From: Bacteroidales bacterium
GTDB lineage: Bacteria; Bacteroidota; Bacteroidia; Bacteroidales; P3
Direction of reading: 5' to 3'
Assembly (NCBI GenBank): GCA_031553195.1
Contig: JAVBLV010000001.1
Coordinates: 58,138-122,137, forward strand
DNA length: 64,000 nucleotides
The notes beneath the pieces are model-generated. The model saw only the letters and a program-made list of their open reading frames with translations, had not been told where the DNA came from and did not search any database. Each line of letters opens with the position of its first letter. Within the stretch, counting starts at the first letter, position 1. The position numbers and the translations under genes were made by a program. Shown in pieces: positions 19,184 through 57,087 of this stretch.

Positions 19184-19340
19184 AGGTTGTTTAAAAATTT
19201 TTCCATGAAGTATTTTGAGTCTAAAAATGCGCTTTTTTGTCGGAATTTTTACCAAATAGCGCTACTATTCTTGAAAAATCCCGCCTGCAAACTCGCTATT
19301 TTTATCTCTCAAATCTTTTCCACAAAAATTTAAACAACCT
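19184..19340 (+). repeat. Copy 1 of the ~155-nt imperfect-palindromic intergenic repeat
   Basis: AGGTTGTTTAAAAATTTTTCCATGAAG ... TTCTTGAAAAATCCCGCCTGCAAA ... AAAAATTTAAACAACCT. The 12-nt termini are exact reverse complements. Lies 44 nt after the rnhB stop. Confidence 0.85.
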
Positions 19341-19537
19341 TTTAAAACCGAGTAAAAACAAAATGTCCTAATAGATTGAATAAATCATTTTACAAAAACT
19401 TATGTTTATGATTCTTTATCACAATGTAAAGGATTCCCAAAGTCGGAATATTATTATACAATTCCGATGAACATATTTCTTGAAAAGTTGTTTAAAATCT
19501 GTCTCTGAAAATTCCATTACAGACTATATTTATCACT

Positions 19538-20089
19538 ATGTTTAAAAATCTAAGGCGTTCCATCGGTTTCTTTTTTCTACAAAAACAACGACCGGCAAAA
19601 AGGCGCAAAAAGTTATATAACTTAAGAGAAGCCAAATCGGTAGGAATGCTCTTTTATTTGACAACCGAACCTGATTGGGAAATCTTACGTCAAGTATATT
19701 TAGAATTAACTAAACAGAAAATAACCGTCAGTTTACTTGGTATTTGCCTGGAAAAACATCTGCCCGATTGGGTATCTAAATTAAGTTTTCCAATACTAAC
19801 AAAAAAAGATTTGAATTTCTGGCTGCTTCCCAAGGCAAAGAGAAATGTTGCAGGATTTTGCGCAACTCCTTTTGATATTTTGATTGATTTTTCTACAAAT
19901 GCAAATATACAGAACCTAGCTATTGTCAACTGGTCAAAGGCATCGCTAAAGGTTGGCAAGCATGATGCCGACAGTTTGCAATATTATGATTTCGTTTTAA
20001 AAGACCCCGACGCGTCATCTTTTCAAGAGCGCGTCAAAAATCTTCTTTATTATTTAACAACAATAAAAACAATGAGTTATGAAAATTAA
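19538..20089 (+). CDS. Conserved hypothetical protein, overlapping the dapA start by 11 nt
   Basis: 183-aa ORF. No motif I can name. Confidence 0.45.
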   Translation: MFKNLRRSIGFFFLQKQRPAKRRKKLYNLREAKSVGMLFYLTTEPDWEILRQVYLELTKQKITVSLLGICLEKHLPDWVSKLSFPILTKKDLNFWLLPKAKRNVAGFCATPFDILIDFSTNANIQNLAIVNWSKASLKVGKHDADSLQYYDFVLKDPDASSFQERVKNLLYYLTTIKTMSYEN

Positions 20090-20972
20090 TTTCACAGGAA
20101 CCGGCGTTGCGGTTATAACTCCTTTTCATAAAAACGGCACTATTGACTTCACTTCATTGGGAAAAATATTAGAACATTTAATTTCCAACGATGTTGACTA
20201 TATCGTTGCAATGGGAACCACAGGCGAAGCAGCCACCCTTAGTCCTATTGAAAAAACAGCCGTGCTCGATTTTATTTTGGAAACTGTTAATAACAGAGTT
20301 CCTGTTGTGCTTGGAATGGGATGCAACAATACATTTGAGATAATTGAAAAGATAAAAAATACTGATTTTGAAGGCATTTCGGCAATTTTGTCTGTTTCGC
20401 CTTATTATAACAAACCGCAACAACAAGGCATTTATCTACATTACAAGAACATCTCGGATGTGTCGCCCGTACCAATTATTATTTATAACGTACCCGGGCG
20501 AACGGCTTCTAATATTACCGCCGAAACAACATTGCGCATAGCCGCCGATATGGACAATGTTATTGGAATAAAAGAAGCTTCGGGAAATATGGTCCAGATT
20601 ATGGAAATTATTCGCCAAAAGCCGAAAGATTTTTTAGTTATTTCGGGAGATGACGCGCTTACCTTACCTATTCTTTCAGTGGGAGGAAACGGAGTTATTT
20701 CTGTCGTTGCCAACGCCTTTCCTCTTGAATTCTCAAAAATGACGCATTATGGCTTGAAAGGAAATCTAAAATCAAGCATGGATATCCATTACAGAATTCT
20801 ACCTATTATAAACGCTTTATTTGAAGATGGAAATCCGAGCGGTATAAAAGCGGCTTTGGAAATCCTGGGATTATGCAGCAATAACGTTCGTTTGCCTCTG
20901 GTAAAAATAAACAAAGCGCTCTATAATAAAATCTCCAATTTAATAACAGATTTTAAACTGCTTAAATTCTAA
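20079..20972 (+). CDS. dapA: 4-hydroxy-tetrahydrodipicolinate synthase
   Basis: 297 aa. GTTGEA, YNKP, IIIYNVPGRT, GIKEASG. Confidence 0.9.
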   Translation: MKINFTGTGVAVITPFHKNGTIDFTSLGKILEHLISNDVDYIVAMGTTGEAATLSPIEKTAVLDFILETVNNRVPVVLGMGCNNTFEIIEKIKNTDFEGISAILSVSPYYNKPQQQGIYLHYKNISDVSPVPIIIYNVPGRTASNITAETTLRIAADMDNVIGIKEASGNMVQIMEIIRQKPKDFLVISGDDALTLPILSVGGNGVISVVANAFPLEFSKMTHYGLKGNLKSSMDIHYRILPIINALFEDGNPSGIKAALEILGLCSNNVRLPLVKINKALYNKISNLITDFKLLKF

Positions 20973-20992
20973 AGAATATAATTGCAAAAAAC

Positions 20993-21028
20993 GCCCGCCA
21001 AAACATTCAATTCTGCGCGGGCTTTTTT
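20993..21028 (+). terminator. Rho-independent terminator of dapA
   Basis: Stem GCCCGC / GCGGGC followed by TTTTTT, 20 nt after the dapA stop. Confidence 0.65.
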
Positions 21029-21073
21029 AGTTCGCCCAGCATGGTTATAAATCTAACGGGTGTGAGTCCCTAA

Positions 21074-21229
21074 CATGCCCTGATAGCGGGAAGTGTCCAG
21101 CCAAAGACAAGGGTGTCTGTTGCGAAGCTCATGACATTATCTGTTGATGGCGTTATTGGGTTGGATGTGTTGTCGCAATACAAAGAAACCATTATTGATT
21201 TTACGAATATGCGCATGGATATCAGGTAA
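21074..21229 (+). pseudogene. C-terminal remnant (~50 codons) of a retropepsin-like aspartic protease gene
   Basis: Frame reads HALIAGSVQPKTRVSVAKLMTLSVDGVIGLDVLSQYKETIIDFTNMRMDIR*. The DG[IV][IL]G[LM]D[FV]L...IDF tail is typical of clan AA bacterial proteases. There is no N-terminal part because the dapA terminator abuts it. The region looks GC-richer than its flanks by eye. Confidence 0.4.
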
Positions 21230-21263
21230 TTGAAAAACGTAAATAAAGGTTCTTCCGCTTATA

Positions 21264-21293
21264 ACAAAAGAGGCCGTCTTTCCGGACGACCTC
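21264..21293 (-). terminator. Terminator after the 186-aa OMP gene
   Basis: Stem GAGGCCGTC / GACGACCTC (one G.U pair). On the minus strand it is followed by TTTTGTT. Confidence 0.55.
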
Positions 21294-21352
21294 TCCTCAA
21301 ATCAAATAGCAAATTAACATTTCCTGTCTCTATAATGGTTTTGAGATTTTAT

Positions 21353-21913
21353 CTAGGGTTTTCTACACGGTAAGTAGATCTGGAATCCGATGCCTAAGGT
21401 AAGATCCCCAGTATAGGTCTCATTTCCAAAGCCTACCCTGCCATTATATTTTAACAGCGCTTCCAGTCCGATATTCTCAGTAATAAAATAGGCAAAGCCA
21501 GGACCAAATCCGAATCCAAATCCATTTGTCGACGATCCATTGGCCGGATTGGTACCTTCAATGCCGGCATTTGCCTCGAAGAAGAAATTGGAATGTTTAG
21601 CGACCTCTATATTTTTGTCGTTGACATAATATCGTCCGAGAGGGCCTATTCCATAAGAAATACCTGTTCCTACGTCGGATATATGGTCAGCGCTGAAAAG
21701 AGTATAAGCGCCTATGGCTAAATTGTCTTTAATAAAGAAGGCTGCTTTTGGATTTAATGTGAAAGTAATTTCGCTCCCGGAATTTAATCCGATATTCAGA
21801 TTAGCAACATCGCCCCCCACCATTATATTTCCTTTACGGGTTTGCGCATTTACTTGATTTATGCCTATGCTCAAGGCAAATAGAATTGTTAAAGTTAGAG
21901 CTGTTTTTTTCAT
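21353..21913 (-). CDS. Small outer-membrane beta-barrel protein (OmpW/OmpA-barrel-like)
   Basis: 186 aa. Signal peptide ending in NAQ. Alternating beta-strand pattern with GFGFGFGPGFAYF. Confidence 0.55.
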   Translation of the reverse strand: MKKTALTLTILFALSIGINQVNAQTRKGNIMVGGDVANLNIGLNSGSEITFTLNPKAAFFIKDNLAIGAYTLFSADHISDVGTGISYGIGPLGRYYVNDKNIEVAKHSNFFFEANAGIEGTNPANGSSTNGFGFGFGPGFAYFITENIGLEALLKYNGRVGFGNETYTGDLTLGIGFQIYLPCRKP

Positions 21914-22548
21914 AGAAATTTATTTAAATTGTTAAAATTGAGATTTCTGACAAATGATATATGTTTTGTTTATTATTCTAAAATATAAATTTCAAACAAT
22001 AAACAACTGTAATTCGTTTTTGTTCAGAATTTATATTTATCCCATTTACTATAAATAGTCTATGTTTGATGTTAAAAGCAGATCTTGTAAGTCTTGAGAA
22101 TCTATGCTATGGGATTTAGCAGATCGGATTATTTTTGTATACAATCATTACAAATTTTCCAGAGGGTAGATTCTGGATATTGGAAATAACATTGCATGAA
22201 CTCGGTAATAAAAACAGAATAGGCGTATTTTATCTTATCACTCTTGTCAAAACCATTAATGGATTCCTTTCGCCTCACTCGTTTTACTCAGTCGGAATGA
22301 CAAAACGTTGTTTGTTTAGTTTTGGTTTAAAAACGCTCGCTTAAAGTTCTCAAAGATCGAAAAGCAAAACGCAAAGTTTTTTTTGACGCATCTTTTGAGT
22401 ATACATCCATCATTAAAGCATGGCATTGATTATTTGCAAATAAACCCGACCCCATGTTAGCCTGCCATTCGGAAAACGGTTGCATTTAGATATTAAGGCC
22501 CTTTTACGTTAAATAAAAAGCGAAGAATACATTCAAATCGCAGATGAA

Positions 22549-23541
22549 TTACTTATAAAAGTTTTTCTCAAACGCAGAAAACTCCCCTTTCTTTAGGATA
22601 AGACGATTCCAAACGGCTGAGAGAAATCCGAAACCATAAGCCGTTAGTTGAATTAATGATGCAATAATAGATAGAAATCCAATTTTAAGGCTTTGATTTT
22701 TCAGGGTTGAATCTATTAAAATAAGAATACAATAAAATACGATTGGAAGCAAAGACCATCTACAAAAGATGAAGCCCAGTAATAAGAAAAAGACAAAAAT
22801 AGTGAATGCAGCCGGAAGCAGATGCACTATTTTTAACGATTCGGGATATTTCAAATACAAATTTATACGAGCAATTCCCGAATTATATACTTGTCTGAAA
22901 AACTTTTTCCAGTCAGTGCGTCTTTTATGATATACCCATGCCGTAGGGAAAAGCGATACCTTGTAACCTGCATTGTACAAACGAATACTGAAATCAATAT
23001 CTTCTCCAAACCTCATTTTAGAGAATCCTCCCAAAGCCTCGTACACGTTTTTCCTGATTCCCATATTAAAACTCCGGGGATAGAATTTATCTATTTTTTT
23101 CTTGCCCCCGCGTATGCCGCCGGTAGTAAAAAAAGAAGTCATGGAGTAGTTGATTGCCTTTTGAATATCGGTGAAATTATCCGCCGCTTTATCGGGGCCG
23201 CCAAAAGCATCTGCATTGGTTTTATCTAATTCGGAAATCACAGATTCCATATACTGAGGAGGAAGGATGCAATCCGAATCCAATACAATAATATATTCCC
23301 CCGCGCTTTTCGAAACGCCATAATTGCGCGCCTGTCCGGGGCCTCCGTTGGGAATAAAATAATAAGAAATGTTCAGCGTTTCTTTAAATTTTTCGATTAT
23401 CCATTCGCAGGGAACCTGAGACCCATCTTCTACAATAACAACCTCAAAATCTTTACTTCCCTGTTTAGTAAGACTATTTAATAACTCATCTACTTCATCC
23501 GGACGATTATAAACCGGAACAACAATTGAAAAATAAGGCAT
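22549..23541 (-). CDS. Family 2 glycosyltransferase with C-terminal TM helices
   Basis: 330 aa. SIVVPVYNR start, VLDSDC (DxD-like). Confidence 0.8.
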   Translation of the reverse strand: MPYFSIVVPVYNRPDEVDELLNSLTKQGSKDFEVVIVEDGSQVPCEWIIEKFKETLNISYYFIPNGGPGQARNYGVSKSAGEYIIVLDSDCILPPQYMESVISELDKTNADAFGGPDKAADNFTDIQKAINYSMTSFFTTGGIRGGKKKIDKFYPRSFNMGIRKNVYEALGGFSKMRFGEDIDFSIRLYNAGYKVSLFPTAWVYHKRRTDWKKFFRQVYNSGIARINLYLKYPESLKIVHLLPAAFTIFVFFLLLGFIFCRWSLLPIVFYCILILIDSTLKNQSLKIGFLSIIASLIQLTAYGFGFLSAVWNRLILKKGEFSAFEKNFYK

Positions 23542-23680
23542 TTCTTTTTCTTATTGGATAAGGATAATTTTCTGATCTGACATTTATAGAATGAACGGAT
23601 TTATTCACAAAAAATTAAAAATGAAGATATTATGGATTTTATGATTCCCAAAAGTAAGGTCTTATAGAAGCGTTTTTAAA

Positions 23681-24412
23681 TTATTTCTTCGTTTGACTTC
23701 CTTTAACCTCTTCGTACTCTTTATTTAAACCCTCTAAAATTTCTTTTGTCAAGTCCAGATTTTCGTCAATGTATAATACAGGACTTTCGATAAATGACTT
23801 TTTCAAAATAACTGTAAATTTACCGTTTTTCTCATTATAATTTTTGATGAAAGCATAAATGGCATTTACTAATTTTGTGTTTTCGGTTAGTTGTTTTTGT
23901 TGTATTTGCATCATCATCGATTCCTGCATTTTACCCAAATCTTGCTGGCGTTGCTTAAAAGATTCCTCTTTCTTTTTTTGTTCGGATAAAGTAAGCGAAG
24001 CCCCCGTCTTTAAATAGTTTTCATAATCGTTCTGAACCGAGCGGACTTGGGATTCAAAGTTTTTTTCAAGATTTGTTTTTAAAGCCTGTAATTCCTTTTC
24101 CAAGTCTTTTGCATATTGGTAATTAGCTATGAGAGTATCCGAATTAATATACGCAATAGTAATGGCTTCGTTTCCGGGAGTTGCCTTTGTTTGAACGGAT
24201 TGTTTGGTTATCGATTCTGTTTCTTTTGCTTTTTTATTATTTGTGAAAAATGATGCATATAGTATAGCTAAGCCTATTAAAAGAATCACATTGAGAATCA
24301 ATAAGCCTGTATAAATTGGATTCTTCGTTTTCTGACCGGGATTCGGATTCAAAGGATTATTATTATTTTCGAGGTTTGAATTTTCGACATTGTTTAAATT
24401 TTCTTCTGTCAT
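23681..24412 (-). CDS. Membrane-anchored OmpH-like coiled-coil protein
   Basis: 243 aa. N/P-rich N-terminus, one TM helix, then an OmpH-like segment (IAYINSDTLIANYQYAKDLEKEL). Occupies the position usually held by ftsZ. Confidence 0.5.
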   Translation of the reverse strand: MTEENLNNVENSNLENNNNPLNPNPGQKTKNPIYTGLLILNVILLIGLAILYASFFTNNKKAKETESITKQSVQTKATPGNEAITIAYINSDTLIANYQYAKDLEKELQALKTNLEKNFESQVRSVQNDYENYLKTGASLTLSEQKKKEESFKQRQQDLGKMQESMMMQIQQKQLTENTKLVNAIYAFIKNYNEKNGKFTVILKKSFIESPVLYIDENLDLTKEILEGLNKEYEEVKGSQTKK

Positions 24413-24487
24413 AGCTAATTATATTTTGTTTTATTTATTCCGGAATATTTGAAATTTTGCGTTCCATTTGGACTTGATAGTAGGATT

Positions 24488-25822: not shown

Positions 25823-25832
25823 AGTCTTTCCA

Positions 25833-26627: not shown

Positions 26628-26743
26628 CCGAATTCCTTTAAATTCTTTTATTTAAATAGTAAATAATGATTTCAAGAACAGATAATTTCAACATCGCTTT
26701 CGAACAAAAAAAACCATAAGATAAATAATAAGTTCATTTATGA

Positions 26744-26903
26744 GTAATCGTTTAAATTTTTATGGAAAAGATTTTGAGGAATAAAAACGGCTATTTTGCA
26801 GACGGGATTTTTCAAGAATAGTAGCGCTATTTGGTAAAAATTCCGGCAAAAAAGAGCGTTTTTAGATTCAAAATGCTTCATAGAAAAATTTTTAAACGGT
26901 TAC
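26744..26903 (-). repeat. Copy 2 of the palindromic intergenic repeat (opposite orientation to copy 1)
   Basis: GTAATCGTTTAAATTTT ... GGGATTTTTCAAGAATAGTAGCGCTATTTGG ... AAAATTTTTAAACGGTTAC. TGA lies on both flanks. Confidence 0.85.
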
Positions 26904-27312
26904 TGAGTATCTAAAACTTCATCTAAACAACTTTAACAATCAAAATACGCTTATCTTCAATACGTTATTCAATCAGACGATATATCAAATTGTTTCTTGT
27001 CATTTGTAATCATTCTGTAATGAACTTTACTATGAAATTTGTTCAGGAATCATTATATATGACAAAGTTACGGTTAAAACAAGTATTTTACAAGCAATGA
27101 ACAAATTTCGTTTAATTTCTTTTCAAAATCCGAGAAATAAAAATAACTACTTGACAATATTCCGTGAAGAATAATATTTTCAAATCCAGATAATTTAAAG
27201 TAAATTACAAATTGCAATGCAAATTTACAACCTTTTCAGCAGAGAAATGAAAATGGCAAAAAAAGATAATGAAAAAAATCCGGTTCATGCAGTATAAAGA
27301 CGGATTGTAAAT

Positions 27313-27354
27313 AAAAAAGGTTATTGAAACTAAACTAGCTCAATAACCTTTTTG
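27313..27354 (-). terminator. Terminator after the Y-rich-protein / barrel gene pair (structure is bidirectional)
   Basis: Stem AAGGTTATTGA / TCAATAACCTT flanked by A-runs and T-runs, ~45 nt after the stop of the 494-aa gene. Confidence 0.6.
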
Positions 27355-27395
27355 TTTTTGAATAAGTCTTTGCAGAGATGGCTTATACCAATCAA

Positions 27396-28880
27396 TTAGA
27401 ACCTAAAACCAAATGTTGTAATAATTAAATTTTCGCTTTTATTGACCTTTACAGGTTCTATCTGATAATAAGGATCGTACATGTAATAATTTACTTTTTG
27501 CAAAGTATGAGCATAGGCCAAATCAATATACCAAAATCTGGATTTATAGCCAAGTCCTGCAGAGAAAGCATTCTTATTTCCTGCATTAGTCCCTGATTTC
27601 GCATAGGTTGTATTCTGATAAGGACTTCCAAATAAAGCATAACCTGCGCGAAATACTGCTTTTTTATAATTTAAAGATCCCCCGGCTCTAAATACATGAC
27701 CGGATTTGTACACATTTTCTATTATATCATTAACCGTGTTTTCCCATCTGTTATCATCTAACTGATAAGTCATGAAGGAATAATTGGTATATTCATAATC
27801 AACGCCTATAGAACCGGCTAAGGTAGAATTTTGATCGCCAAACGTTGCGCCGACGCTTCCCAATACTTTAAAGGGAGTTATCAAATAATATTCCGAAACT
27901 ACAACAGGAGAATAAGCGTCTATCCCTTCATAATAATCGGCTAAAGAAGAACTGTACGAATCATCATACATCGAATAAAAAGTAGGGGTATGGAAAGCCG
28001 CTCCAATACGCAACCACTCCGTCGGACGTAAAATGGCTCCGATTTTTAAATTAACCCCCCAACCTTTGGTATACAAATCCTCAAAATAGTCGAAACTAGG
28101 ATTCCCGTCGGACAAATACTCAGAATATACGGAATGTCTTTCATAAGAAAGATAGGGAATTCCCAATGTTGCGCCCAAGTATAAAAAATCGTTATAATTT
28201 CCGCTGATGGATAGCGCAAATTCATCAATTCCTCCTTTTTCAGAGAAATCTTGACTTTGCTCGCTAGGCCCTTGGGCTCTAGAAAAATAACGTTTTCCTC
28301 CCGTGCCGGGGAGCGTATCCATAAGATACGTATAAAATGCAAGTCCCGCCGTAAAAGGATCTAAATTCGAAGGCGTTAGACCATTTGAGTTATAAACCCA
28401 TTCATCGGTAATAGAGTAATCGGGGTTACGTCCGTAAATACTTGTCGCATTATTAAATGCGGCTAAACGGTTATAGCTAAATCCTACTTGAAATGCTTTC
28501 CAATCATTATTTGCTTTGGTAGGAACAGCTAACAGAAGACCCACGGGCGCCCAATAAAAACTAGACCTGAAATCACTGGCTTTTGATCCGAAATAATCAG
28601 AGGAGGAATAGCCTATATGAAGCGAGGGCGAGATAAGAAATTCAGACCGGTAAAAAAGGCCCAAGCCTGCGGGATTATAGCTTGAGGCCGTTAAATCGCC
28701 GCCAAGCGCGCCGATAGCGCCTGCTCTTCCTACATAAGAAGCCGTTCCGAAGAGGCCATATTGACTACTACGCAATGCATCTTCTTCAGTTTGAGATTTT
28801 ACTTGCCCAATACTTAGACAAAGAAATGTAATGATGAAAAATCTTTTCATACAAATTGCCGATTTTAACTTTAAATACAT
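27396..28880 (-). CDS. FadL/PorV-like outer-membrane beta-barrel protein. The start is probably the Met at ~28850.
   Basis: 494 aa. Signal peptide MKRFFIITFLCLSIGQVKSQ. N-terminal GRAGAIGALGGDLTASSYNPAGLG motif as in FadL/PorV-type barrels. C-terminal ..TTFGFRF. Confidence 0.6.
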   Translation of the reverse strand: MYLKLKSAICMKRFFIITFLCLSIGQVKSQTEEDALRSSQYGLFGTASYVGRAGAIGALGGDLTASSYNPAGLGLFYRSEFLISPSLHIGYSSSDYFGSKASDFRSSFYWAPVGLLLAVPTKANNDWKAFQVGFSYNRLAAFNNATSIYGRNPDYSITDEWVYNSNGLTPSNLDPFTAGLAFYTYLMDTLPGTGGKRYFSRAQGPSEQSQDFSEKGGIDEFALSISGNYNDFLYLGATLGIPYLSYERHSVYSEYLSDGNPSFDYFEDLYTKGWGVNLKIGAILRPTEWLRIGAAFHTPTFYSMYDDSYSSSLADYYEGIDAYSPVVVSEYYLITPFKVLGSVGATFGDQNSTLAGSIGVDYEYTNYSFMTYQLDDNRWENTVNDIIENVYKSGHVFRAGGSLNYKKAVFRAGYALFGSPYQNTTYAKSGTNAGNKNAFSAGLGYKSRFWYIDLAYAHTLQKVNYYMYDPYYQIEPVKVNKSENLIITTFGFRF

Positions 28881-28892
28881 AAATCATCTAAA

Positions 28893-30425: not shown

Positions 30426-30432
30426 TATTTCG

Positions 30433-33336: not shown

Positions 33337-34935
33337 ATGTTGAAAAAGATTCCCCATACATTTACGATTGTCTTTTTTCTGGTATTATTTGCAGCCGTAC
33401 TCACATGGATTATTCCCAGCGGAGAATACTCGCGCGAGCAAAAGGAGATCAACGGAAGCGTAAAAACGATTGTGGTTAATAATTCTTACCACAAAGTAGA
33501 AAAACAACCTCAAACATGGCAGATTTTTTCAGCCTTTTTTAAGGGTTTCGTAGATAAGGCCAATATTATTGTTTTTATTCTTATGGTCGGCGGCGCTTTC
33601 TGGATTTTAAACGGCACTAAGGCTATTGATGTGGGAATTATGGCCTTTTTACGCAAAATACAAAAACTGCAACACAAAAGATTCTTCAAACATTTGGGCG
33701 TTAACAATATTATCATGACGCTCATTATGATTATCTTTAGCTTATTTGGCGCTATTTTCGGAATGAGCGAAGAAACCATTGCTTTTGTTATTATTTTTGT
33801 TCCTTTGGCTATTTCTATGGGATATGATTCTATTACCGGACTATGTCTTTGTTATGTGGCGGCGCATGTCGGGTTTGCCGGCGCCATTTTGAATCCGTTT
33901 ACGATTGGAATTGCCCAGGGGATTGCCGACCTACCGCTCTTTTCCGGATTAGGCTACCGGGTATTTTGCTGGATTGTTTTGACAACCATTACCATTACAT
34001 TTGTATTATTATATGCCGCGCGAATAAAAAAGAATCCGCAAAAATCGTGGGTCTATGCGTTAGATAATTATTGGAGGAATCGGGCTCAGGCCAGCGAACA
34101 GGAAACAGTTGCATATCACACACCCCTTGCAGCATGGATAATATGGATTTTGCTTTCAGGAATAATGTTGGCATGTTCATTCATGTATCCTTGCACGGCA
34201 ATAGAATTAGGCGAAAGCAAATATGCTATTTATGCCGTGCCTGTTTTATCTGCTTTGTTCCTGATCAGCGGCTTTTTCGCATTACGTAAATCGGTGCATT
34301 TCTTTATTTTGGATATTCTTATTTTTACCATCCTCTTTCTGATTATCGGCGTTTTGGGATATCAATGGTATGTGGAAGAAATCGCATCTTTGTTTTTTGC
34401 CATGGGGATCTTTTCCGGATTGGCTTATCAAACTCATTTCGACAAATTGATGAAACAATTTTTGGAAGGAGCCAAAGATATTATGAACGCCGCTTTAGTG
34501 GTCGGTTTGGCCAGCGGAATTATTTTCATTTTACAAGATGGAAAAGTTTTGGATACCATCTTATACGGATTATCAAAGTCGTTGGCTAATTTAGGAGAAG
34601 TTGCCTCTACCGGCGTTATGTACGTTTTTCAAACAGGTTTGAATCTCATTATGCCGTCAGGGTCTGCCAAAGCTGCCCTGACCATGCCGTTAATGTCTCA
34701 ATTCTCCGACTTAATCGACGTTTCGCGCCAAACAACGGTTTTAGCATTCCAATTTGGCGATGGCTTTACCAATATGATAACGCCAACCTCGGGAGTTTTG
34801 CTCGGATGTTTGGGTGTTGCCCGTATTCCTTATACTATTTGGTTTCGGTGGATTTATAAATCTATCCTGATTCTCATTCTGATCGGTTTCTTATTAATTT
34901 TACCGACGCTGTATTTGCATTTAACAGGGTTCTAG
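33337..34935 (+). CDS. YfcC/DcuC-type multi-pass membrane transporter
   Basis: 532 aa with about 12 hydrophobic helices. Overall resemblance to the YfcC family. Substrate unknown. Confidence 0.5.
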   Translation: MLKKIPHTFTIVFFLVLFAAVLTWIIPSGEYSREQKEINGSVKTIVVNNSYHKVEKQPQTWQIFSAFFKGFVDKANIIVFILMVGGAFWILNGTKAIDVGIMAFLRKIQKLQHKRFFKHLGVNNIIMTLIMIIFSLFGAIFGMSEETIAFVIIFVPLAISMGYDSITGLCLCYVAAHVGFAGAILNPFTIGIAQGIADLPLFSGLGYRVFCWIVLTTITITFVLLYAARIKKNPQKSWVYALDNYWRNRAQASEQETVAYHTPLAAWIIWILLSGIMLACSFMYPCTAIELGESKYAIYAVPVLSALFLISGFFALRKSVHFFILDILIFTILFLIIGVLGYQWYVEEIASLFFAMGIFSGLAYQTHFDKLMKQFLEGAKDIMNAALVVGLASGIIFILQDGKVLDTILYGLSKSLANLGEVASTGVMYVFQTGLNLIMPSGSAKAALTMPLMSQFSDLIDVSRQTTVLAFQFGDGFTNMITPTSGVLLGCLGVARIPYTIWFRWIYKSILILILIGFLLILPTLYLHLTGF

Positions 34936-34936
34936 C

Positions 34937-35081
34937 AGGGTTTCAAATTTTTGTGGGAAAGGTTTTGAGAGATAAAAATAGCGCATTTGCAGGCGGAATT
35001 TTTCAAGAATAGCAGCGCTTATTTGGGAAAAGTTCCAACAAAAAAGAGCATTTTTAGGCTCAAAATACTTTTTAAACACCT
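34937..35081 (-). repeat. Copy 3 of the palindromic intergenic repeat, with a ~14-nt internal deletion
   Basis: AGGGTTTCAAATTTTTGTGGGAAAGG ... GGAATTTTTCAAGAATAGCAGCGCTTATTTGGG ... CTCAAAATACTTTTTAAACACCT. Starts 1 nt after the transporter stop codon. Confidence 0.8.
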
Positions 35082-35119
35082 TCTAAAATATAGCGTCTCA
35101 AAATGAATCAAATTATGTG

Positions 35120-38572: not shown

Positions 38573-39973
38573 TTAGCTATTTAAATAATTTATTATCTCC
38601 CAATTATCCATCATTTCGGGACAGTATTTTTGAATGTTTTGAAGCGTTCTTTCCTTTTCGATTGCAATCGATTTGCTTAATGTCAAACAACACAAATAGA
38701 TATCGCCTTTTAAAAAACAATAAATGGCTGTTAAACTTATCAAATCCGGCGAGTCAGGAACTTCTGTTTTCCCTTTTTCCAATATTTCTAACGCTTCTCC
38801 GTACAATTCCTGAATTCCATATAATTGAGCGTATTTAAACCACGCTTCTTCACAAGCGGGATACAAATCCGTCAATTTCTTAAAATTCAAATGCGCTTCG
38901 GCCCACAAATGTTCTTGCGTTTGTATATCTGCAATGGTTAATAAAACTTCTATGCTTTCTGGACTCAGTTCCATTGCTTTTTTTAAATATGGGAAAGCAG
39001 AACCCAGATCGTCCATTTCATAAAAGCAAATTCCTACCCCTAGCCATGCTTCGGCAATATATGGGTCTAAATCAATGGCTTTTTTATAGTAAGCAGAAGC
39101 TGTTTCCCAATTTTCCAACTTTTCGAAGCATTCTGCAATAGATAGATAGAACCAAGATTTTTCACAATGGAAAGGTAAGCCTTCTTTTAAAACCTTAATA
39201 GCATCATGATATTTTTCCAACAAAATAAAACAATTCGCTTTTGCCGCATAGGCAGGTATATATTCATCATCTATAGCCAACACATAATCGAACGCATCTA
39301 TAGCTTTTTCGAACAGAGAGGTATTTTGATAACATGTTCCTAAACCGTACCATGCTATTTTTGAATAAGGATTCCTTTTTATGTACCCCGATAAAAACTC
39401 CAGACTCTCCTCTTCCCGTTCCCCCATTTCGATATTCATCAACAATTCATAAAATGTATTCTCATTTCCAGGGTTATACGATAAAGCCTTTTTGCAATAT
39501 TCAATGGCTTTATCATATTTGCCTAAATTATGATACTCAAAAGCAATATTGGTGTATATCTCGTCTAAATCTTCTCCTTGTTTGGTTGCCTTATTATATT
39601 CTTCAATTGCCTTTTCGTAACGTTGTAATTGACTGTATATGGCTCCCTTGGCAAAGTGAATTTCAATATTTCCGGGTTCTATGTGTTCAATGCTGTTTAA
39701 TATTTTCAGCGCTTCTTCCGATTTTTCGGAAATGGCAAGTAATTGAGCTTGCCTAAGCAATACAGGTATAGATTGGGGGAATAGATTAACGGCATGCTCA
39801 ATAGCCTTCTTCATTGAATCTAATTGTTCATTTTCAAAATAATAGTCGATAATACATTCAAATTCGTCAATATCGAAATATGAATGTTGTTTTTTCGACA
39901 ACATTTCTTCAAATCGAAAAATCAAGTCTTTGAAAGCGGCGCTATAACCGTCTTCGTATTTCTTATTACTCAT
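38573..39973 (-). CDS. Tetratricopeptide-repeat protein
   Basis: 466 aa with many 34-residue A..Y..A...P repeats. Confidence 0.7.
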   Translation of the reverse strand: MSNKKYEDGYSAAFKDLIFRFEEMLSKKQHSYFDIDEFECIIDYYFENEQLDSMKKAIEHAVNLFPQSIPVLLRQAQLLAISEKSEEALKILNSIEHIEPGNIEIHFAKGAIYSQLQRYEKAIEEYNKATKQGEDLDEIYTNIAFEYHNLGKYDKAIEYCKKALSYNPGNENTFYELLMNIEMGEREEESLEFLSGYIKRNPYSKIAWYGLGTCYQNTSLFEKAIDAFDYVLAIDDEYIPAYAAKANCFILLEKYHDAIKVLKEGLPFHCEKSWFYLSIAECFEKLENWETASAYYKKAIDLDPYIAEAWLGVGICFYEMDDLGSAFPYLKKAMELSPESIEVLLTIADIQTQEHLWAEAHLNFKKLTDLYPACEEAWFKYAQLYGIQELYGEALEILEKGKTEVPDSPDLISLTAIYCFLKGDIYLCCLTLSKSIAIEKERTLQNIQKYCPEMMDNWEIINYLNS

Positions 39974-40004: not shown

Positions 40005-40218
40005 ACGAAACAAAACACAATAAATAAGAGAAAATACAATCTGAGATTCTCTGGTTTTATTCGTGTATATAACGGCATTATTTATTAAAATCGCACATTT
40101 CCAACTTTGCAAAACGAATGCATCCTATATTTTAATACAAAATGGCTTCATCCTATTTTTACGAAGCATCGTTATTTTCAAATTGGTCATTCCCGAATCA
40201 ATGGTAAATCGACTTTAA

Positions 40219-40378
40219 GTAACTGTTTAAAAATTTTTCCATGAAGTATTTTGGATCTAAAAACGCTCTTTTCTGTTGGAAATTTTACCAAATAAGCGCT
40301 GCTATTCTTGAAAAATCCCGCCTGCAAAATAGTTGTTTTTATCTCTCAAAATCTTTTCCATAAAAATTTAGACAACCT
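40219..40378 (+). repeat. Copy 4 of the palindromic intergenic repeat
   Basis: GTAACTGTTTAAAAATTTTTCCATGAAGTATTTTGG ... TTCTTGAAAAATCCCGCCTGCAAA ... AAAAATTTAGACAACCT. Lies in the divergent TPR/pckA spacer. Confidence 0.85.
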
Positions 40379-40583
40379 CTAAGAATTGAAATAATAAAAT
40401 TAACAAACAATATGTTTGTAAGCGTCATTCATTAAAAACCCTCGTATAAAAAATTCATATTCTTTCGCTCTTCTTACTTTATTCGAATACTTTATATGTG
40501 TGCAATCATATATGTAATCATCTGATATAAGAAGAATTAAATATTTATCTCATAGACATATACGTTCGATTGGGTTTTTTTAT

Positions 40584-47074: not shown

Positions 47075-47119
47075 ATTCAACTTGATAAAATAATTATAAT
47101 GGTTAAATCTTAATCTAAC

Positions 47120-47126
47120 AAGGAGG
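47120..47126 (+). promoter_or_regulatory. Canonical Shine-Dalgarno AAGGAGG 5 nt before the gadB ATG
   Basis: Read directly. The other starts I checked in this window (purQ, proS, pckA, glmS) show no such sequence. Confidence 0.6.
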
Positions 47127-47131
47127 TAACT

Positions 47132-48514: not shown

Positions 48515-48575
48515 TTAAACTTTACCGCAATGATTACAAAGAGTTTATGCAAAGAACGCTAAGATTTTGATGGTA

Positions 48576-48583
48576 TACTTTTG
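48576..48583 (+). promoter_or_regulatory. -7 box TACTTTTG for gadC
   Basis: Matches TAnnTTTG, 51 nt before the ATG at 48634. Confidence 0.4.
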
Positions 48584-48633
48584 TAAACTTTGTGCCTTTG
48601 TGGTGAATAATCAGCAACTCAATAAAAACTATT

Positions 48634-50076: not shown

Positions 50077-50329
50077 GAGTTGAAAGTGATTTTTTTGTGG
50101 AAAACGTTTTTAACGATGAATTTTTTAATTTGAGGATTTAGAAACGATTTTATGGTTGAAAATGGAAAAATTCCATAGTACAGAATTTTGTGAAAACACA
50201 GAAAATTAAAAACGAATAGAACCAAATATATATAACACAGCAAAGTATAATAAACGATGAATATGAACGCAGAACGATGAATTTTTTTTGTCATCTATTA
50301 TAATTATTCACTATTCAAAGCCAACAAAC

Positions 50330-51745: not shown

Positions 51746-51810
51746 ATTGTAAAGCTTTTCTGTTGGAGTTCTTGGTAATCAAAATTATTTGAACAATAAA
51801 AACAAACACG

Positions 51811-53112
51811 ATGAAAACTAAAAAAGAGATCTATTTGAAATATCTATACCTACTGGGGGTATTTATTATTCAAAGTTTTCAAGCCGGGGGACAAGATACC
51901 AACTTTCAGCAATTGCAAACCCAAATAACCCGGCTTGAACAAAAAATAAAATATTTGGATACCACAATTCGTTGTTTCGAACGCGACAGCCTCGCTGCTC
52001 CTACCCGTAACGATATTGAAAATCATCGGTTGCAGGGGTTGGTTATTACCGATATTAAAAGAATATCCTTACAAATCGGCGGATTTGTACAAGCGGATTT
52101 TATACATGATTTTATGGAAATGACCAATAGAGACGCCTTTCAAACTTCATCCATTGTTGTTCAGACAGATCATCACAACAACACGGAATTCAGTATACGG
52201 CAATCCCGGCTAAACTTTTCAGCTAAGGGCCCTACTCAATTCGGTGATTTTTTTGCTCTGCTTGAATTTGATTTATGGGGACCTAACGGAACGTCTAATC
52301 CCCGGATTCGCCATGCTTGGATCAATATAGGAAAATGGGGATTCGGACAATACTGGAGTAATTTTACAGACAATGATACATGGCCCAATTTAATTGACTT
52401 CTGGGGACCGAATGCCGCTATTTGGAAACGACAGGTGCAAATCCGGTTTACGCAACCTCTAAATAAGCATAATGTTTTGGCTTTTTCTTTAGAACAACCA
52501 GGTTCAGATGTAACCTTCCCTGTTGATTCTACTTCTTGGACTGTACGAACTTTGTACCCTGATTTTATCGGTAGTTATACTTTAAATTGGAACGATAACA
52601 ACAGCCATATCAAATTAAGCGGATTGTTACACCCGATTTCGTACGAGACAAATACCGAAAAAACTCAAAATATTATAGCAGGCGCCTTTAATATTGCAGG
52701 AAATATCCGTACGTTCGGTAACGATGCATTAAAATTTCAGGCTTCTTATGGAACCGGTTACGCCCGGTATAATGAAGATCTTAGCGGGATGGGTTATGAG
52801 GCTATGCCTAATCCTATGAACGGATACGAATTAGAATCTGTCATGCAATATTACTTTTGGATTTTCTACGACCATTGGTGGGGTAAAAAGTTCAGTTCCA
52901 CCATTGGTTGGGGACATGTAGGAATTAATCGGGAAGATTATTTTGCACCCGCAACCATTTCTTATACAAACTATGGCGCAGTGAACTTCCTTTGGTATCC
53001 AAACAAGTATTTCAAAACAGGAATAGAATTTCTTTATGGCAATCGCAAGAACCATAACGGAGAAACCGGCGAGAATTTCAGGATTCAGTATAGCGCTTTT
53101 GTAAGGTTATAA
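51811..53112 (+). CDS. Outer-membrane porin with an N-terminal coiled coil (DcaP-like)
   Basis: 433 aa. Signal peptide, heptad segment QLQTQITRLEQKIKYLD, then an aromatic-rich barrel ending in AFVRL. Confidence 0.5.
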   Translation: MKTKKEIYLKYLYLLGVFIIQSFQAGGQDTNFQQLQTQITRLEQKIKYLDTTIRCFERDSLAAPTRNDIENHRLQGLVITDIKRISLQIGGFVQADFIHDFMEMTNRDAFQTSSIVVQTDHHNNTEFSIRQSRLNFSAKGPTQFGDFFALLEFDLWGPNGTSNPRIRHAWINIGKWGFGQYWSNFTDNDTWPNLIDFWGPNAAIWKRQVQIRFTQPLNKHNVLAFSLEQPGSDVTFPVDSTSWTVRTLYPDFIGSYTLNWNDNNSHIKLSGLLHPISYETNTEKTQNIIAGAFNIAGNIRTFGNDALKFQASYGTGYARYNEDLSGMGYEAMPNPMNGYELESVMQYYFWIFYDHWWGKKFSSTIGWGHVGINREDYFAPATISYTNYGAVNFLWYPNKYFKTGIEFLYGNRKNHNGETGENFRIQYSAFVRL

Positions 53113-53113
53113 T

Positions 53114-53145
53114 GAAAAAACAGGTATCGTAACAATACCTGTTTT
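53114..53145. terminator. Bidirectional terminator between the convergent porin and aminotransferase genes
   Basis: AAAACAGGTAT / ATACCTGTTTT stem flanked by an A-run on one side and a T-run on the other. Confidence 0.65.
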
Positions 53146-53177
53146 AATTCATTTATTGAGAACAGGATTAATTTCTA

Positions 53178-54494
53178 TTATTTTTGATGCTCTTTATGGA
53201 ATTGTTGTAAACGCTTTTCCAATTCGGGTAACTGGGAGCGTTTAATCAGAGATACGCAAGCGCGGATTCCTTCGGTTCGTTGACTTCCGGTAATACCTAA
53301 TGCAATTGCACTGATTCCATAGTGGACCAATTCCGTTAATAAATCTTCCCCACTAAATCCCGGATAAGAAAAAGTAAAGTAAAATCCATCGGCGATAGGT
53401 TCATCTAAATCTTTGTCGTACACAATTTTAAATCCATTCTCGACAAACATTTTCTTCATTATCTTTGCCTTTTCTCCATATTCTTTTACATCCTCTACAA
53501 AGTTATAGCGTCCTTCATTAACGGCTTTCAAAATAGCGGTTAAGGCATATTGTGGAGAATGCGCCGTTCCGGAGCTTAAAACATACAAAGAACCAAAAAC
53601 CATTGCTCTTCCAAAGCTGTCGGTGTTATAATATTTTCGTAGTTCTTCCGATTTGGAATTAAATAACGTAGGGCTAATTACCATCATCCCAATACGTTGT
53701 CCTGCATAACTAAACGATTTTGAGCTTGATATCAATAGAATGTATTTCTCGGTGTATTTTCCTACCGAAGGTTGATAAGGAGGCACTCCGGGTTTTGAAT
53801 AGTCTTTGCGAAAATCCATTGCAAAATAAGCCAAATCTTCGATCACAACAACATCGTATTTAGAAGCTAATTCGCCGATAATTCTCAATTCCTGATCGGT
53901 GAAACAAATCCACGAAGGGTTGTTAGGGTTTGAATAAAGCATGCAACTAATGTCGCCTTTCGACAGATAAGATTCCAATTTTGCTCTTAATTTTTCGCCC
54001 CTATAATCATAAACGTCGAAACTTTCAGTAGGAATTCCTAATATTTGACATTGTTGTTTTTGAACAGGGAAACCCGGATCGACAAATAAAACTTTATTCT
54101 TTTTTCCGTTCATTCTACTAATCGTAAGAAACGAAGCAAACCCCCCTTGCATAGAGCCTACAGTTGGCAAACAACATTCGGTGGGGATATCCAGGTCGAC
54201 AAAATTCTTCACAAATAATGAAATTTGCGATTTTAATTCGTCGGTTCCATAAATCTCGGGATAAATGGATGCTACTCCATTACGTAGCGCTTCTATTTCA
54301 GCTTCTACGCCAATTTGAGACGCCGGAAGCCCGGGAATACCCATTTCCATTTTAATAAATTCTACCCCGGTTTCTTTTTCGATGTCTTGAATCATCTTTT
54401 TTACTTCGCGGATAGACGCTTTGCCAATGTTTTGTATACTGTTTTTTTGAGCGATTTTTGCGACAAGTTCGCGGTTTAATGGTATGTTGTTCAT
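53178..54494 (-). CDS. PLP-dependent aminotransferase (class I/II fold)
   Basis: 438 aa. SSSKSFSYAGQRIG (PLP lysine context). Confidence 0.7.
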   Translation of the reverse strand: MNNIPLNRELVAKIAQKNSIQNIGKASIREVKKMIQDIEKETGVEFIKMEMGIPGLPASQIGVEAEIEALRNGVASIYPEIYGTDELKSQISLFVKNFVDLDIPTECCLPTVGSMQGGFASFLTISRMNGKKNKVLFVDPGFPVQKQQCQILGIPTESFDVYDYRGEKLRAKLESYLSKGDISCMLYSNPNNPSWICFTDQELRIIGELASKYDVVVIEDLAYFAMDFRKDYSKPGVPPYQPSVGKYTEKYILLISSSKSFSYAGQRIGMMVISPTLFNSKSEELRKYYNTDSFGRAMVFGSLYVLSSGTAHSPQYALTAILKAVNEGRYNFVEDVKEYGEKAKIMKKMFVENGFKIVYDKDLDEPIADGFYFTFSYPGFSGEDLLTELVHYGISAIALGITGSQRTEGIRACVSLIKRSQLPELEKRLQQFHKEHQK

Positions 54495-54520
54495 TACAAA
54501 TATTATTTTTAAGTATCTAA

Positions 54521-55429
54521 TTAAGGATTAAATGCGCTTTTAACCTTATTCACATTAATAGGACTTATTAACCTGATTGCTTCTAATACATCGGTCTTTT
54601 CCGGCTCGGAAGCAGGGGTAAAAATACTGATGATTTCGCTGATTTTTGCATCGCCAAATAATTGCACGGCAAATAAATTCTGTTTTTCTTTGGTTACCGC
54701 TTGCACAAGTTTTAAAGCTTCAATAATGCTGGCGCGGGCTTTTGTTTGATTGACGCTCATCATGTCCAACCCTAAACGATGATATTGATAATTGGCTTCT
54801 CTCAAACCTTTGTATAAGGGGTTGGTATAATTTTCTATCAACCAATATTTATTTTTACTTCCTTCAAAGGATTTCCATCCCTTAGAGTCCGATTTGTCCG
54901 CTGTTTGAACAATAGTTTGAGCCATCGTAAAAAATGTCGTTCCGCCGTATTGAGAATAAGAATCAAAATCGAGTCCGAGAAGAATATATAAGTAGAAAGC
55001 AATGGTCGATGAAAGATTAGTGTAATATGTGTTAGAAGAAAACTCGATAGGAACGGTTTCATCGTAGGTGAAAACAAATTCAGGTTCCATATAATTAAAC
55101 ATCGTCGTCGTATAGTTGGAATTATATACAGGCCGGCGCGACTGTATGTTTAGTTGCGCTTTAAAAGTTGTTCTGGAAGTTTGTTCGGAAATAATAAGTC
55201 CGATGCTACAGTCTATCTTTTCTTCAGGTTTAAATGTATAGTTTGTCCATTTACGGTTATTTATGAAGTTTTCAAGAGCCGCTTTCATCGTTTCGAACAC
55301 TCTTTTATCTGTCGATTGTACTTGTTGCGCGCTTACCGAAACCTGACATCTGAATTCCTGCGCTTTTACCTTCGGGAAGAAGAAAAAACACAAATAAGAA
55401 AATAAAAAAACGACAAAATATTTCTTCAT
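54521..55429 (-). CDS. Conserved secreted protein of unknown function, of the kind found next to coaBC in Bacteroidota
   Basis: 302 aa. Signal peptide ending in KAQE. Confidence 0.45.
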   Translation of the reverse strand: MKKYFVVFLFSYLCFFFFPKVKAQEFRCQVSVSAQQVQSTDKRVFETMKAALENFINNRKWTNYTFKPEEKIDCSIGLIISEQTSRTTFKAQLNIQSRRPVYNSNYTTTMFNYMEPEFVFTYDETVPIEFSSNTYYTNLSSTIAFYLYILLGLDFDSYSQYGGTTFFTMAQTIVQTADKSDSKGWKSFEGSKNKYWLIENYTNPLYKGLREANYQYHRLGLDMMSVNQTKARASIIEALKLVQAVTKEKQNLFAVQLFGDAKISEIISIFTPASEPEKTDVLEAIRLISPINVNKVKSAFNP

Positions 55430-55448
55430 AATATGACCACAATGATTG

Positions 55449-55456
55449 CAAAAGTA
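55449..55456 (-). promoter_or_regulatory. -7 box TACTTTTG (plus-strand CAAAAGTA)
   Basis: Matches TAnnTTTG, 20 nt upstream of the start at 55429. Confidence 0.35.
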
Positions 55457-55612
55457 GCTAATTTTTCAATGTCCAATTATTTCAAAAAGAGTAAAAATGA
55501 AATCCTGCGCCCTGTTTACATTTAAGTAACAGTTCAAATTTTATTGCGCAAATTTCAGATACCTAATTCCCTTTTTTCTTGAGGACTGTTATTTTCGCTT
55601 ATACCTTACGAA

Positions 55613-56800
55613 TCAGAAGAGAGACGATAGTTTTTCCACAATATCGATAGCCGCTTCCTTTTTAGATTTTAGTTCAAAAGCTTCGATGTTCCCCTCTTTA
55701 TCCAAAATTGTAATTTTATTTGTCGGAACTGCAAAACCGGCCCCTTCGTCGTTAAGCGAATTTAAAACGATAAAATCAAGGTTTTTATTTTTCAATTTTT
55801 GTTTTGCATTCTCAATTTCACTTTCCGTTTCCAGGGCAAAACCGACTAACTTCTGATTTGATTTTTTTTGTTGTCCCAATGAAGCCAAAATGTCTTTTGT
55901 TTGTACAAGATTGATATTTAACGTATCATCTGATTTTTTTATTTTATTGGCAGAAAATTCTTTGGGTGAAAAATCGGCTACGGCCGCCGATAATATAGCC
56001 GCATCGGAAGAAGGAAAGTATTTCTCGCAAAGTTCATACATTTGTTGAGCCGATTCTATGTTTAAACGAACAACATTTGGATGGGAGATTGTTAAATGTG
56101 TGGGACCTGCTATCAGAGTGACTTTTGCACCCCGGTTTGCCAACGTTTCGGCAATAGAAAAGCCCATCAAACCAGTAGAAAAATTCCCGATATAACGAAC
56201 AGCGTCAATCTTTTCGTAGGTAGGACCTGCTGTTACCAAAATGCTTTTTCCTGTCAAAGAAGTTGTTTTTTGAAAAAAGTTTTCAATAAAACGAACAATA
56301 TTTTCGGGTTCTTCCATTCGTCCTTTGCCTTCGTAGCCGCAAGCCAAATCGCCAATTGCCGGCTCAATCAGATGAATGTCGTTCGATTTTAATGTAGATA
56401 AGTTCTTTTGTACGCTGAAATGTTCATACATCTTACAGTTCATACTTGGACAAATAAACAAAGGTTTTGAAAAAGCCAACAAAGTAGTTGACAATGCGTC
56501 GTCGGCAATTCCATTTGCTAATTTTCCGATAATATTGGCGGTTGCAGGGGCTAAGATCATCAAGTCTGCCCAATCGGTCAATGCAATATGTTCTGTTGAA
56601 TACTCATTGTCCGAAGAAAACATATCGAAATAAATATTATTTTGCGTAAGCGTTTCTAATGTTTTTTGAGTTACAAATTCCAATCCGCTCTGGGTAATAA
56701 CAACTTTGACTTCCGCCCCTGTTTTTTTTAGCAAACGAATAAGCGAAGGGATTTTATAAGCGGCAATTCCGCCGCTGATGCCAATAAGTATTCTGTTCAT
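55613..56800 (-). CDS. coaBC: Bifunctional phosphopantothenoylcysteine decarboxylase / phosphopantothenate--cysteine ligase
   Basis: 395 aa. GISGGIAAYK, PATANIIGK, ACGYEGKGRMEEP, AAVADF. Confidence 0.9.
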   Translation of the reverse strand: MNRILIGISGGIAAYKIPSLIRLLKKTGAEVKVVITQSGLEFVTQKTLETLTQNNIYFDMFSSDNEYSTEHIALTDWADLMILAPATANIIGKLANGIADDALSTTLLAFSKPLFICPSMNCKMYEHFSVQKNLSTLKSNDIHLIEPAIGDLACGYEGKGRMEEPENIVRFIENFFQKTTSLTGKSILVTAGPTYEKIDAVRYIGNFSTGLMGFSIAETLANRGAKVTLIAGPTHLTISHPNVVRLNIESAQQMYELCEKYFPSSDAAILSAAVADFSPKEFSANKIKKSDDTLNINLVQTKDILASLGQQKKSNQKLVGFALETESEIENAKQKLKNKNLDFIVLNSLNDEGAGFAVPTNKITILDKEGNIEAFELKSKKEAAIDIVEKLSSLF

Positions 56801-56904
56801 AAATATTCCGTCCTTCTTTTATTTTTTATTGAACTCTTTTTCGGACAATTTCATTTTTTGCCTTCGAGAAAATAACGGATTTTGGTTTGTAATCTTTTAT
56901 TGAA

Positions 56905-56912
56905 CAAAGGTA
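56905..56912 (-). promoter_or_regulatory. -7 box TACCTTTG (plus-strand CAAAGGTA) upstream of coaBC
   Basis: Matches TAnnTTTG, 105 nt upstream of the start at 56800. Confidence 0.35.
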
Positions 56913-56933
56913 CAATTTAATTTTTGCTTAAGA

Positions 56934-57087
56934 AGCTGTCTAAATTTTTCGAGAAAAGATTTTGAGAAATAAAAACAGCGAGTTTGAAGACGGAATTTTT
57001 CAAGAATAGTAGAGCTATTTAGTAAAGATTCTGACAAAAAAGAGCGTTTTTAGGATTAAAATACTTCGTAGAAAAATTCTAATATCC
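56934..57087 (-). repeat. Copy 5 of the palindromic intergenic repeat (most diverged; one terminus degenerate)
   Basis: AGCTGTCTAAATTTTTCGAGAAAAGATTTTGAG ... GGAATTTTTCAAGAATAGTAGAGCTATTTAG ... GAAAAATTCTAATATCC. Confidence 0.75.

Follow-up and report, generated by a model that had tools for sequence, protein, structure and literature searches.

Short palindromic repeats between bacterial genes include the Correia/NEMIS elements of Neisseria, ERIC of Enterobacteria, and RUP of Streptococcus pneumoniae, which are intergenic MITEs (miniature inverted-repeat transposable elements) of ~100–160 bp in at least 100 copies; they duplicate TA, are tied to transposase families other than the one considered here, and are co-transcribed with adjoining genes, and their hairpins affect RNA ends. 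REP/BIME sequences are palindromes of 20–40 nt without a duplication and have an associated IS200-like RAYT gene. In the Bacteroidota, Porphyromonas gingivalis carries MITEs derived from IS5 (BrickBuilt, MITEPgRS/MITE464, MITE239, and MITE700); in these and in the Neisseria element ATR, whose parent is ISNme1, only the inverted repeats, which start with GAG, match resident IS5-family insertion sequences (ISs), and the interiors are unrelated (PMC4596501). MITECca01 of the Cardinium endosymbiont of Oedothorax gibbosus, which was found only by manual inspection, has 169 copies, mostly intergenic, and is absent from sister strains (PMC9769881). Here we analyzed a 64,000-nt stretch of a Bacteroidales genome (GenBank GCA_031553195.1, contig JAVBLV010000001.1; hereafter, the window), which carries five copies of a palindromic repeat. 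The window corresponds to C59:58138-122137 of its own genome, an assembly of 3.09 Mb in 122 contigs with 37% G+C. The repeats are very probably a non-autonomous MITE of 160 bp that uses the transposase of an IS5-family IS.

BLASTN of the five copies against their own genome detected 206 loci on at least 73 contigs, 166 of them full length and evenly divided between the strands (83 plus, 83 minus). The family totals 28.9 kb, which is 0.93% of the genome or one copy per 15 kb. The original prediction, made from the window alone, had extrapolated to hundreds of copies (~240), which comes close to the count, and further copies thus exist genome-wide. The terminus pattern had 197 matches in the genome, compared with one for the reversed control. 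Alignment of the 166 full-length copies with their flanks revealed sharp boundaries and a 160-nt consensus, GAGGTTGTTTAAAAATTTTTC ... AAAAATTTAAACAACCTC, and 160 of the 166 copies are 156–163 nt long. The unit is bounded by terminal inverted repeats of ~20 bp (GAGGTTGTTTAAA...TTTAAACAACCTC), in which GAGGTTGTTTAAAAATTT pairs with AAATTTAAACAACCTC and positions 1–13 pair with positions 148–160 in 77–98% of copies. No protein family is encoded by the consensus, and no internal tandem repeats are carried; the whole element is a hairpin. The extended imperfect hairpin proposed earlier is real, as the median RNA folding energy of the 166 copies (−35 kcal/mol for the sense strand and −43.6 for the antisense strand) is well beyond that of shuffled sequences (−19 ± 3.9).

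Directly outside the element, a T-N-A triplet is found on both sides. The left and right triplets were TTA/TTA in 43 copies, TAA/TAA in 28, TGA/TGA in 6, and TCA/TCA in 3, and the mixed pairs TTA/TAA and TAA/TTA were seen in 3 and 6 copies, respectively. Identical triplets flanked 81 of the 166 copies, against 38 expected, and the left-right association was highly significant (Fisher test, p = 1.4e-12). If the inverted repeat extended further, TTA would face TAA; the copies show the opposite, which indicates a 3-bp target-site duplication. The inspection of flanks that the original prediction had proposed therefore yielded a direct TNA duplication.

A search for longer elements sharing the MITE ends identified an 883-bp IS at G000:C100:16254-17136, with the ends GAGATTGTCTAAATTTT and GAAGTTGTTTAAATTTT, which adjoins a MITE copy in the order MITE, TAA, IS. 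On its minus strand lies the gene for an IS5-family transposase, which matches NCBIfam NF033580 (E = 3.6e-60) and has the Pfam domains DUF4096, DDE_Tnp_1, and DDE_Tnp_1_2. Only two other traces of the IS were found in the genome, at C25 and C43. The relative at C43 (G000:C43:4444-4577) is cut by the contig end, and its terminus, GTAACTGTTTAAATTT, is exactly the second MITE end type. Intact homologues of the transposase, each a single ORF of ~253 aa and up to 81% identical, are common in metagenomes, and an intact 894-bp IS with the ends GAGGTTGTTTAAATTT...AAATTTAAACAACCTC is present in the metagenome contigs L015 and L021, flanked in L015 by TAA/TAA. The MITE shares 16–19 nt at its ends with the C100 IS, the C43 end, and the ISs of L015 and L021. 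At eight other DDE_Tnp_1 loci of the genome, no MITE-like ends were found.

The search for a transposase gene with the same ends, which had also been proposed, thus led to an IS5-family IS, and the MITE-type architecture suggested from the window is borne out by the inverted repeats, the 3-bp duplication, the cognate IS, and the 206 loci. At the sequence level the repeat has every attribute of a MITE: it is short, carries no transposase gene, has inverted repeats, is flanked by a duplication, shares its ends with an IS, and occurs in dispersed copies. It is not simply part of a known IS end, nor is it an Rfam family: covariance models gave nothing at the gathering threshold for the window, nothing at E <= 1 for copy 1, and nothing for three extra loci.

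ISs of the IS1031 group are ~850–950 bp long. The partner IS resembles this group, for which one ORF and a 3-nt target have been described (PMC2516522); its features, rather than a comparison in ISfinder, place it there and not in the IS427 group. In L021 (positions 4560-4795; ENA ERZ27241893 contig k141_142073), which derives from another organism, an element of ~235 bp adjoins the intact IS in the order element, TCA, IS. This element has an unrelated interior, a left end of the GTAACTG type, and the right end CAACCTC. Elsewhere, this IS lineage thus seems to have given rise to other MITEs, and it seems to tend to land beside its own ends.

We propose that the DDE transposase of the 883–894-bp IS5-family IS binds at the ~20-bp terminal inverted repeats. 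The 253-aa transposase (DUF4096 and DDE_Tnp_1), supplied in trans, would insert the MITE at TNA and duplicate 3 bp. The family would have been amplified to ~200 copies in at least three subfamilies tracking variant IS ends, with insertions surviving nearly only between genes and copies then decaying neutrally. As a side effect, the long hairpin, once transcribed, would often mark an RNA stop.

Several observations weigh against this proposal. Identical flanking triplets are kept in only 49% of copies, and the MITE and the IS have only the ~20-nt ends in common, the internal 120 nt being unrelated to the IS interior. Furthermore, the sole fully assembled cognate IS, that of C100, is a pseudogene, its reading frame interrupted once by an in-frame TAG and once by a frameshift, which makes current activity doubtful unless an intact copy has escaped assembly. 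Such an unassembled, possibly intact IS is hinted at twice, by the copy at the C43 contig end and by a second IS variant in the DNA run, which has a depth of ~40x and shows 14 differences and two deletions against the C100 copy. Because the repeats break the assembly (C43 ends in the IS and C59:1-142 starts in the MITE), the IS copy number is probably underestimated. Lastly, no empty site or presence/absence polymorphism was found in the runs of the one study in which the organism occurs, where contigs break at repeats and which have no counterpart in a sister strain or a second assembly, and no joints skipping a copy were seen in the DNA run; the case for mobility therefore comes from the duplications and not from direct observation.

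The limits of the five window copies were refined with the 166-copy alignment. All five had been predicted to within 1–4 nt, and no sixth copy was found within the window. Their alignment showed 82% mean column identity with long invariant blocks, and all of them sit between ORFs, with both orientations represented, just as had been described. Copy 1 (19183..19341, plus strand, 159 nt) lies 43 nt downstream of rnhB, has the GAGGTTG type at both ends, and is flanked by a direct duplication of TTA (19180-19182 and 19342-19344). Copy 2 (26744..26903, minus strand, 160 nt) lies upstream of ftsQ within a long spacer, and it has the GTAAC(C/T)G type at both ends and TGA flanks (26741-26743 and 26904-26906). 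Copy 3 (34936..35083, minus strand, 148 nt) carries an internal deletion near one end, which was put at ~14 nt in the original prediction and measures ~12 nt; its flanks are TAG and TAA, and the left triplet (34933-34935) is the stop codon of the upstream gene. Copy 4 (40219..40379, plus strand, 161 nt), located in a divergent intergenic region, has one end of each type, as had been recognized (GTAACTG on the left and CAACCTC on the right), with TAA flanks (40216-40218 and 40380-40382), and is one of 10 such hybrids genome-wide. In copy 5 (56932..57089, minus strand, ~158 nt), the decayed terminus noted earlier was seen, and a target-site duplication is not clear.

In the whole genome, 159 of the 166 full-length copies are intergenic, although ~81% of the genome lies within crude ORF calls, on which the orientation statistics also rest. 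Convergent, divergent, and tandem spacers are occupied in proportion to their length. Relative to the upstream gene, 72 copies are antisense and 43 are sense (p = 0.009), and between co-directional gene pairs the numbers are 52 and 27. This bias fits orientation-dependent polarity. We also considered a replication-strand bias, which is not a better explanation because the bias still follows the gene among genes opposing the GC-skew strand (18 versus 11, small numbers). As a separate observation, the TNA target overlaps stop codons: among the 115 gene 3' ends that have a copy within 200 nt, 21 have a stop codon that overlaps the element boundary or lies at most 4 nt from it.

Element ends are coupled: both are GAGGTTG in 75 copies and both are GTAACTG in 23, and the hybrids mentioned above make up the mixed class. 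These two types are the ends of two related ISs, that of C100 (GAGGTTG) and that of C43 (GTAACTG). There are at least three subfamilies, with GAGGTTGTTT ends, GAGGTTGTCT ends, and GTAACTG ends, which track variant IS ends and also differ at internal diagnostic sites. In the youngest subfamily (GTCTAAA ends), identity to the subfamily consensus is 97.5%, and in the GTAACTG subfamily it is 93.8%. Identity to the family consensus has a median of 90.6% (range 69–99%, maximum 98.8%), and the median pairwise identity among copies is 84%.

Double changes that preserve pairing were found in seven base pairs (2/159, 3/158, 4/157, 5/156, 9/152, 46/116, and 63/97). Five of these lie within the transposase-binding ends, and only 46/116 (T-A in 105 copies, C-G in 42) and 63/97 are internal. 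Such compensated changes are inherited by whole subfamilies and therefore represent few events, and several changes at the subfamily level are uncompensated: 37/126, for example, is A-C in 52 copies, and 53/110 is T-C in 79. The low-frequency mutations, which postdate insertion, are not depleted in stems (1.73% at paired and 1.40% at unpaired positions); they mostly break pairs, with G-T and A-C outcomes about equal (59 versus 71). The paired fraction per copy is 0.913, compared with 0.897 ± 0.068 when the same substitutions are placed at random. Individual copies thus decay after insertion without a sign of selection on the hairpin. In the original prediction, the self-complementary change of the outermost 6–7 nt between copies had been taken as a covariation-like pattern suggesting that the hairpin itself is maintained. 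The symmetry stands, but maintenance of the hairpin in individual copies does not, as the end types follow two ISs and the mutations are unconstrained. Since the two end types that define subfamilies are the ends of two ISs, the symmetry of source elements is best read as being kept because both ends must fit one transposase, which is the simplest account. Less likely, transposition may require source copies to retain a palindrome that can fold, and the compensated pair 46/116 would then be accounted for.

Transcription across the copies was examined in one metatranscriptome at the level of contigs, which are k-mer based and break at repeats, so that exact RNA ends are not resolved. RNA depth in the window ranged from 0 to 167 while DNA depth remained near 68, which means that the RNA run is not dominated by DNA carry-over. 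At copy 1, rnhB RNA with a depth of 46 enters the element for at least 25 nt, and no RNA is seen at 19350-19509 against a DNA depth of 62. The copies at 429-588 of L030 (C103) and at 457-616 of L031 (C59) gave the same picture, with RNA entering and none beyond, as did the copy at 4548-4707 of L031 (C59), where expression is low and the evidence weak. DNA depth beyond these RNA-stopping copies stays at 56–70. Transcription continues across the truncated copy 3, which lies within one RNA contig (33096-36000). At copy 2, RNA is 0 at 26919-27353 (DNA depth 70), and an unbroken RNA contig with a depth of 28 runs from inside the copy into ftsQ. In two further cases, transcripts of the downstream gene start ~50 nt beyond the element. 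Copy 5 is not interpretable in RNA because DNA contigs are also missing there, at 56988-57251.

A scan of the copies found no sigma-70 promoter and no intrinsic terminator, that is, no G+C-rich stem followed by a T run, and no exact TAnnTTTG box of the Bacteroidota was visible by eye in the consensus. In four cases RNA enters full-length copies and does not leave them, which, together with an orientation bias against the transcribed direction, hints at a terminator-like side effect. Of the roles for which RNA data had been suggested in the original prediction, transcription holds, in that copies are present in RNA and RNA stops at four of them, and a canonical terminator does not. On the far side of the spacer of copy 2, the RNA of the highly expressed gene at 27396..28880 (minus strand, depth 167) ends within ~14 nt of its stop codon (27382-27396), and ~430 nt without RNA follow before the MITE and ftsQ.

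These RNA data bear on a reading in which the MITE was co-opted by its host. The hairpin would then be a terminator, an RNA-processing site, or an RNA-stabilizing site that sets operon boundaries, and selection would shape its persistence and orientation. We regard this as possible but not probable. It would account for RNA that enters full-length copies and is absent just beyond them at undiminished DNA depth (copy 1 and the L030 and L031 cases), for read-through at the truncated copy only, for the ftsQ transcript starting inside copy 2, and for an antisense bias that follows gene direction. However, the RNA evidence comes from a single metatranscriptome with contigs that break at the very repeats in question, the element has no canonical terminator, post-insertion mutations are unconstrained by pairing, and the types of intergenic region are occupied in proportion to length. 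The orientation test used crude ORF calls, and the bias may reflect purging of harmful orientations, for which no benefit is needed. The broader proposal that the ~200 hairpins act as transcript-end signals, be it as terminators or as barriers in RNA processing, for a sizeable share of operons, with polarity explaining the 2:1 deficit of sense copies between co-directional genes, is doubtful.

It is highly improbable that the repeats are structured non-coding RNA genes or a cis-regulatory RNA motif under selection and not a transposon. Such an origin would agree with the stable hairpin, with the seven pairs showing pairing-preserving double changes, such as 46/116, and with the presence of the elements in RNA. 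It would not be expected to give copies flanked by a 3-bp direct duplication, ends common to an IS, and an equal division between strands, and Rfam gave no match even at the relaxed threshold. Moreover, the compensated changes amount to a few subfamily events, mostly in the transposase-binding ends, private mutations are not depleted in stems, and the symmetry of G-T and A-C intermediates argues against selection on one RNA strand. Another conceivable origin is that full-length IS copies were internally deleted in place at each locus, leaving solo-end relics. This would explain why the MITE ends equal IS ends, and the genome does contain remnants of the IS, at C25 and C43; however, nearly all copies have one length, and the same internal 120 nt, dissimilar to the IS interior, is present throughout. 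Uniform length and a common interior thus reject independent deletions, and near-identical copies within subfamilies show that the short unit itself was copied, so that we consider the chance of such relics negligible. A MITE mobilized by an IS5-family transposase remains the best account.

The MITE family has so far been detected only in this uncultured gut genome. A consensus search of 60 relatives (36 of the same family, none of the same genus) detected no copies, with two short matches at chance level only. Exact-pattern scans with a conserved 27-mer, which is present in 66 of the genome's own 166 copies, gave 0 matches in ~185,000 GTDB species genomes and 0 in JGI metagenome contigs, and no record of a plasmid collection matched the MITE. 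The partner IS is also rare, being present in 2 of 151 genomes of the host's family. Its close relatives are carried by genomes named "MAG: Bacteroidales bacterium EPI_MAG_...", metagenome-assembled genomes (MAGs) of which three hold 3–11 termini, compared with 197 here. The organism itself turned up in just one study, of an "invertebrate gut metagenome", and the protein of the adjoining rnhB occurred only in the two runs of that study, on contigs that break at the repeat.

The assignment explains ~200 intergenic regions at once, and these should be masked or labeled before searches for small RNAs, promoters, or terminators. It also provides a clear-cut case of a MITE burst specific to one lineage, in an uncultured Bacteroidota genome from the invertebrate gut, with the parent IS rare and decaying. 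If the effect on transcript ends is true, operon boundaries would have been rewired genome-wide, as Correia elements do in Neisseria. The repeat breaks assemblies and may serve as a marker for strain typing. The interest of the family is mild and lies in its density, in the two to three end variants tracking IS variants, and in the possible transcript-end effect.

Two loci show the MITE in combination with other elements. At G000:C70:8694-9864 (L012 295-1465), an insertion of ~1.0 kb interrupts a MITE at consensus position ~153 and carries a 312-aa ORF that is by appearance an IS1595-type transposase (zinc ribbon and DDE). MITE positions 145–153 are repeated on both sides, which reads as the 9-bp duplication of the inserting IS itself, with intact MITEs as the empty sites. 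At G000:C71:4459-5242 (L010 260-1043), 784 bp bounded by MITE termini contain fragments of an IS66-like transposase and may represent a composite or nested relic. In the window, DNA contig depth in run X1 was ~0 at 39000-39633 and 56988-57251, with flanks at ~68, and a loose contig end at 57286 is common to the DNA and RNA runs. The depth gaps seem to reflect structural variation at the strain level between MAG and run, or else masking. At L030:4496-4647 (G000:C103:116795-116946, a contig end), the summed RNA contig depth was ~22,000 against a DNA depth of ~3,500, and no Rfam match was found; this may reflect a highly abundant RNA or else an artifact of an adapter or a repeat at the contig end.

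Compared with described systems, the kind of mobile element is clear but ordinary, and no sequence similarity to described families was detected. The partner IS agrees with the IS1031/IS427 groups in its length (883–894 bp), in inverted repeats starting with GAG, in its single DDE transposase of 253 aa with DUF4096 at the N-terminus, and in its 3-bp target; unlike ISs of these groups, the MITE itself carries no transposase. Correia/NEMIS, ERIC, and RUP elements, whose way of working the present family shares with them and with the IS5-derived MITEs of P. gingivalis, belong to different phyla, and the 3-bp TNA duplication sets the present family apart from them, a distinction drawn from their descriptions and not from a direct consensus search. 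REP/BIME sequences, which are mobilized by RAYT, differ from the 160-nt unit with its duplication and IS5-type partner, although no search was aimed at RAYT genes. The IS5-derived MITEs of P. gingivalis are likewise short and non-coding and have a Bacteroidota host. They have no sequence similarity to the element described here, as seen in the ends (GAGGTTGTTTAAA here and GAGACCTTTGCA there), and are about ten-fold less numerous (10–20 copies per genome against ~200); BrickBuilt has irregular duplications in place of the clean 3-bp TNA duplication, and the present element differs from the P. gingivalis MITEs in being one whole hairpin without internal tandem repeats. MITECca01 is similar in being a lineage-specific burst in an invertebrate-associated Bacteroidota genome, with 169 copies against 166–206 here and a mostly intergenic placement in both. 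Its parent, however, belongs to the IS982 family and has intact copies, whereas the IS1031-like parent of the IS5 family is not assembled intact here, and MITECca01 is larger, with 240 bp and 3.5% of the genome compared with 160 bp and 0.9% for the present family.

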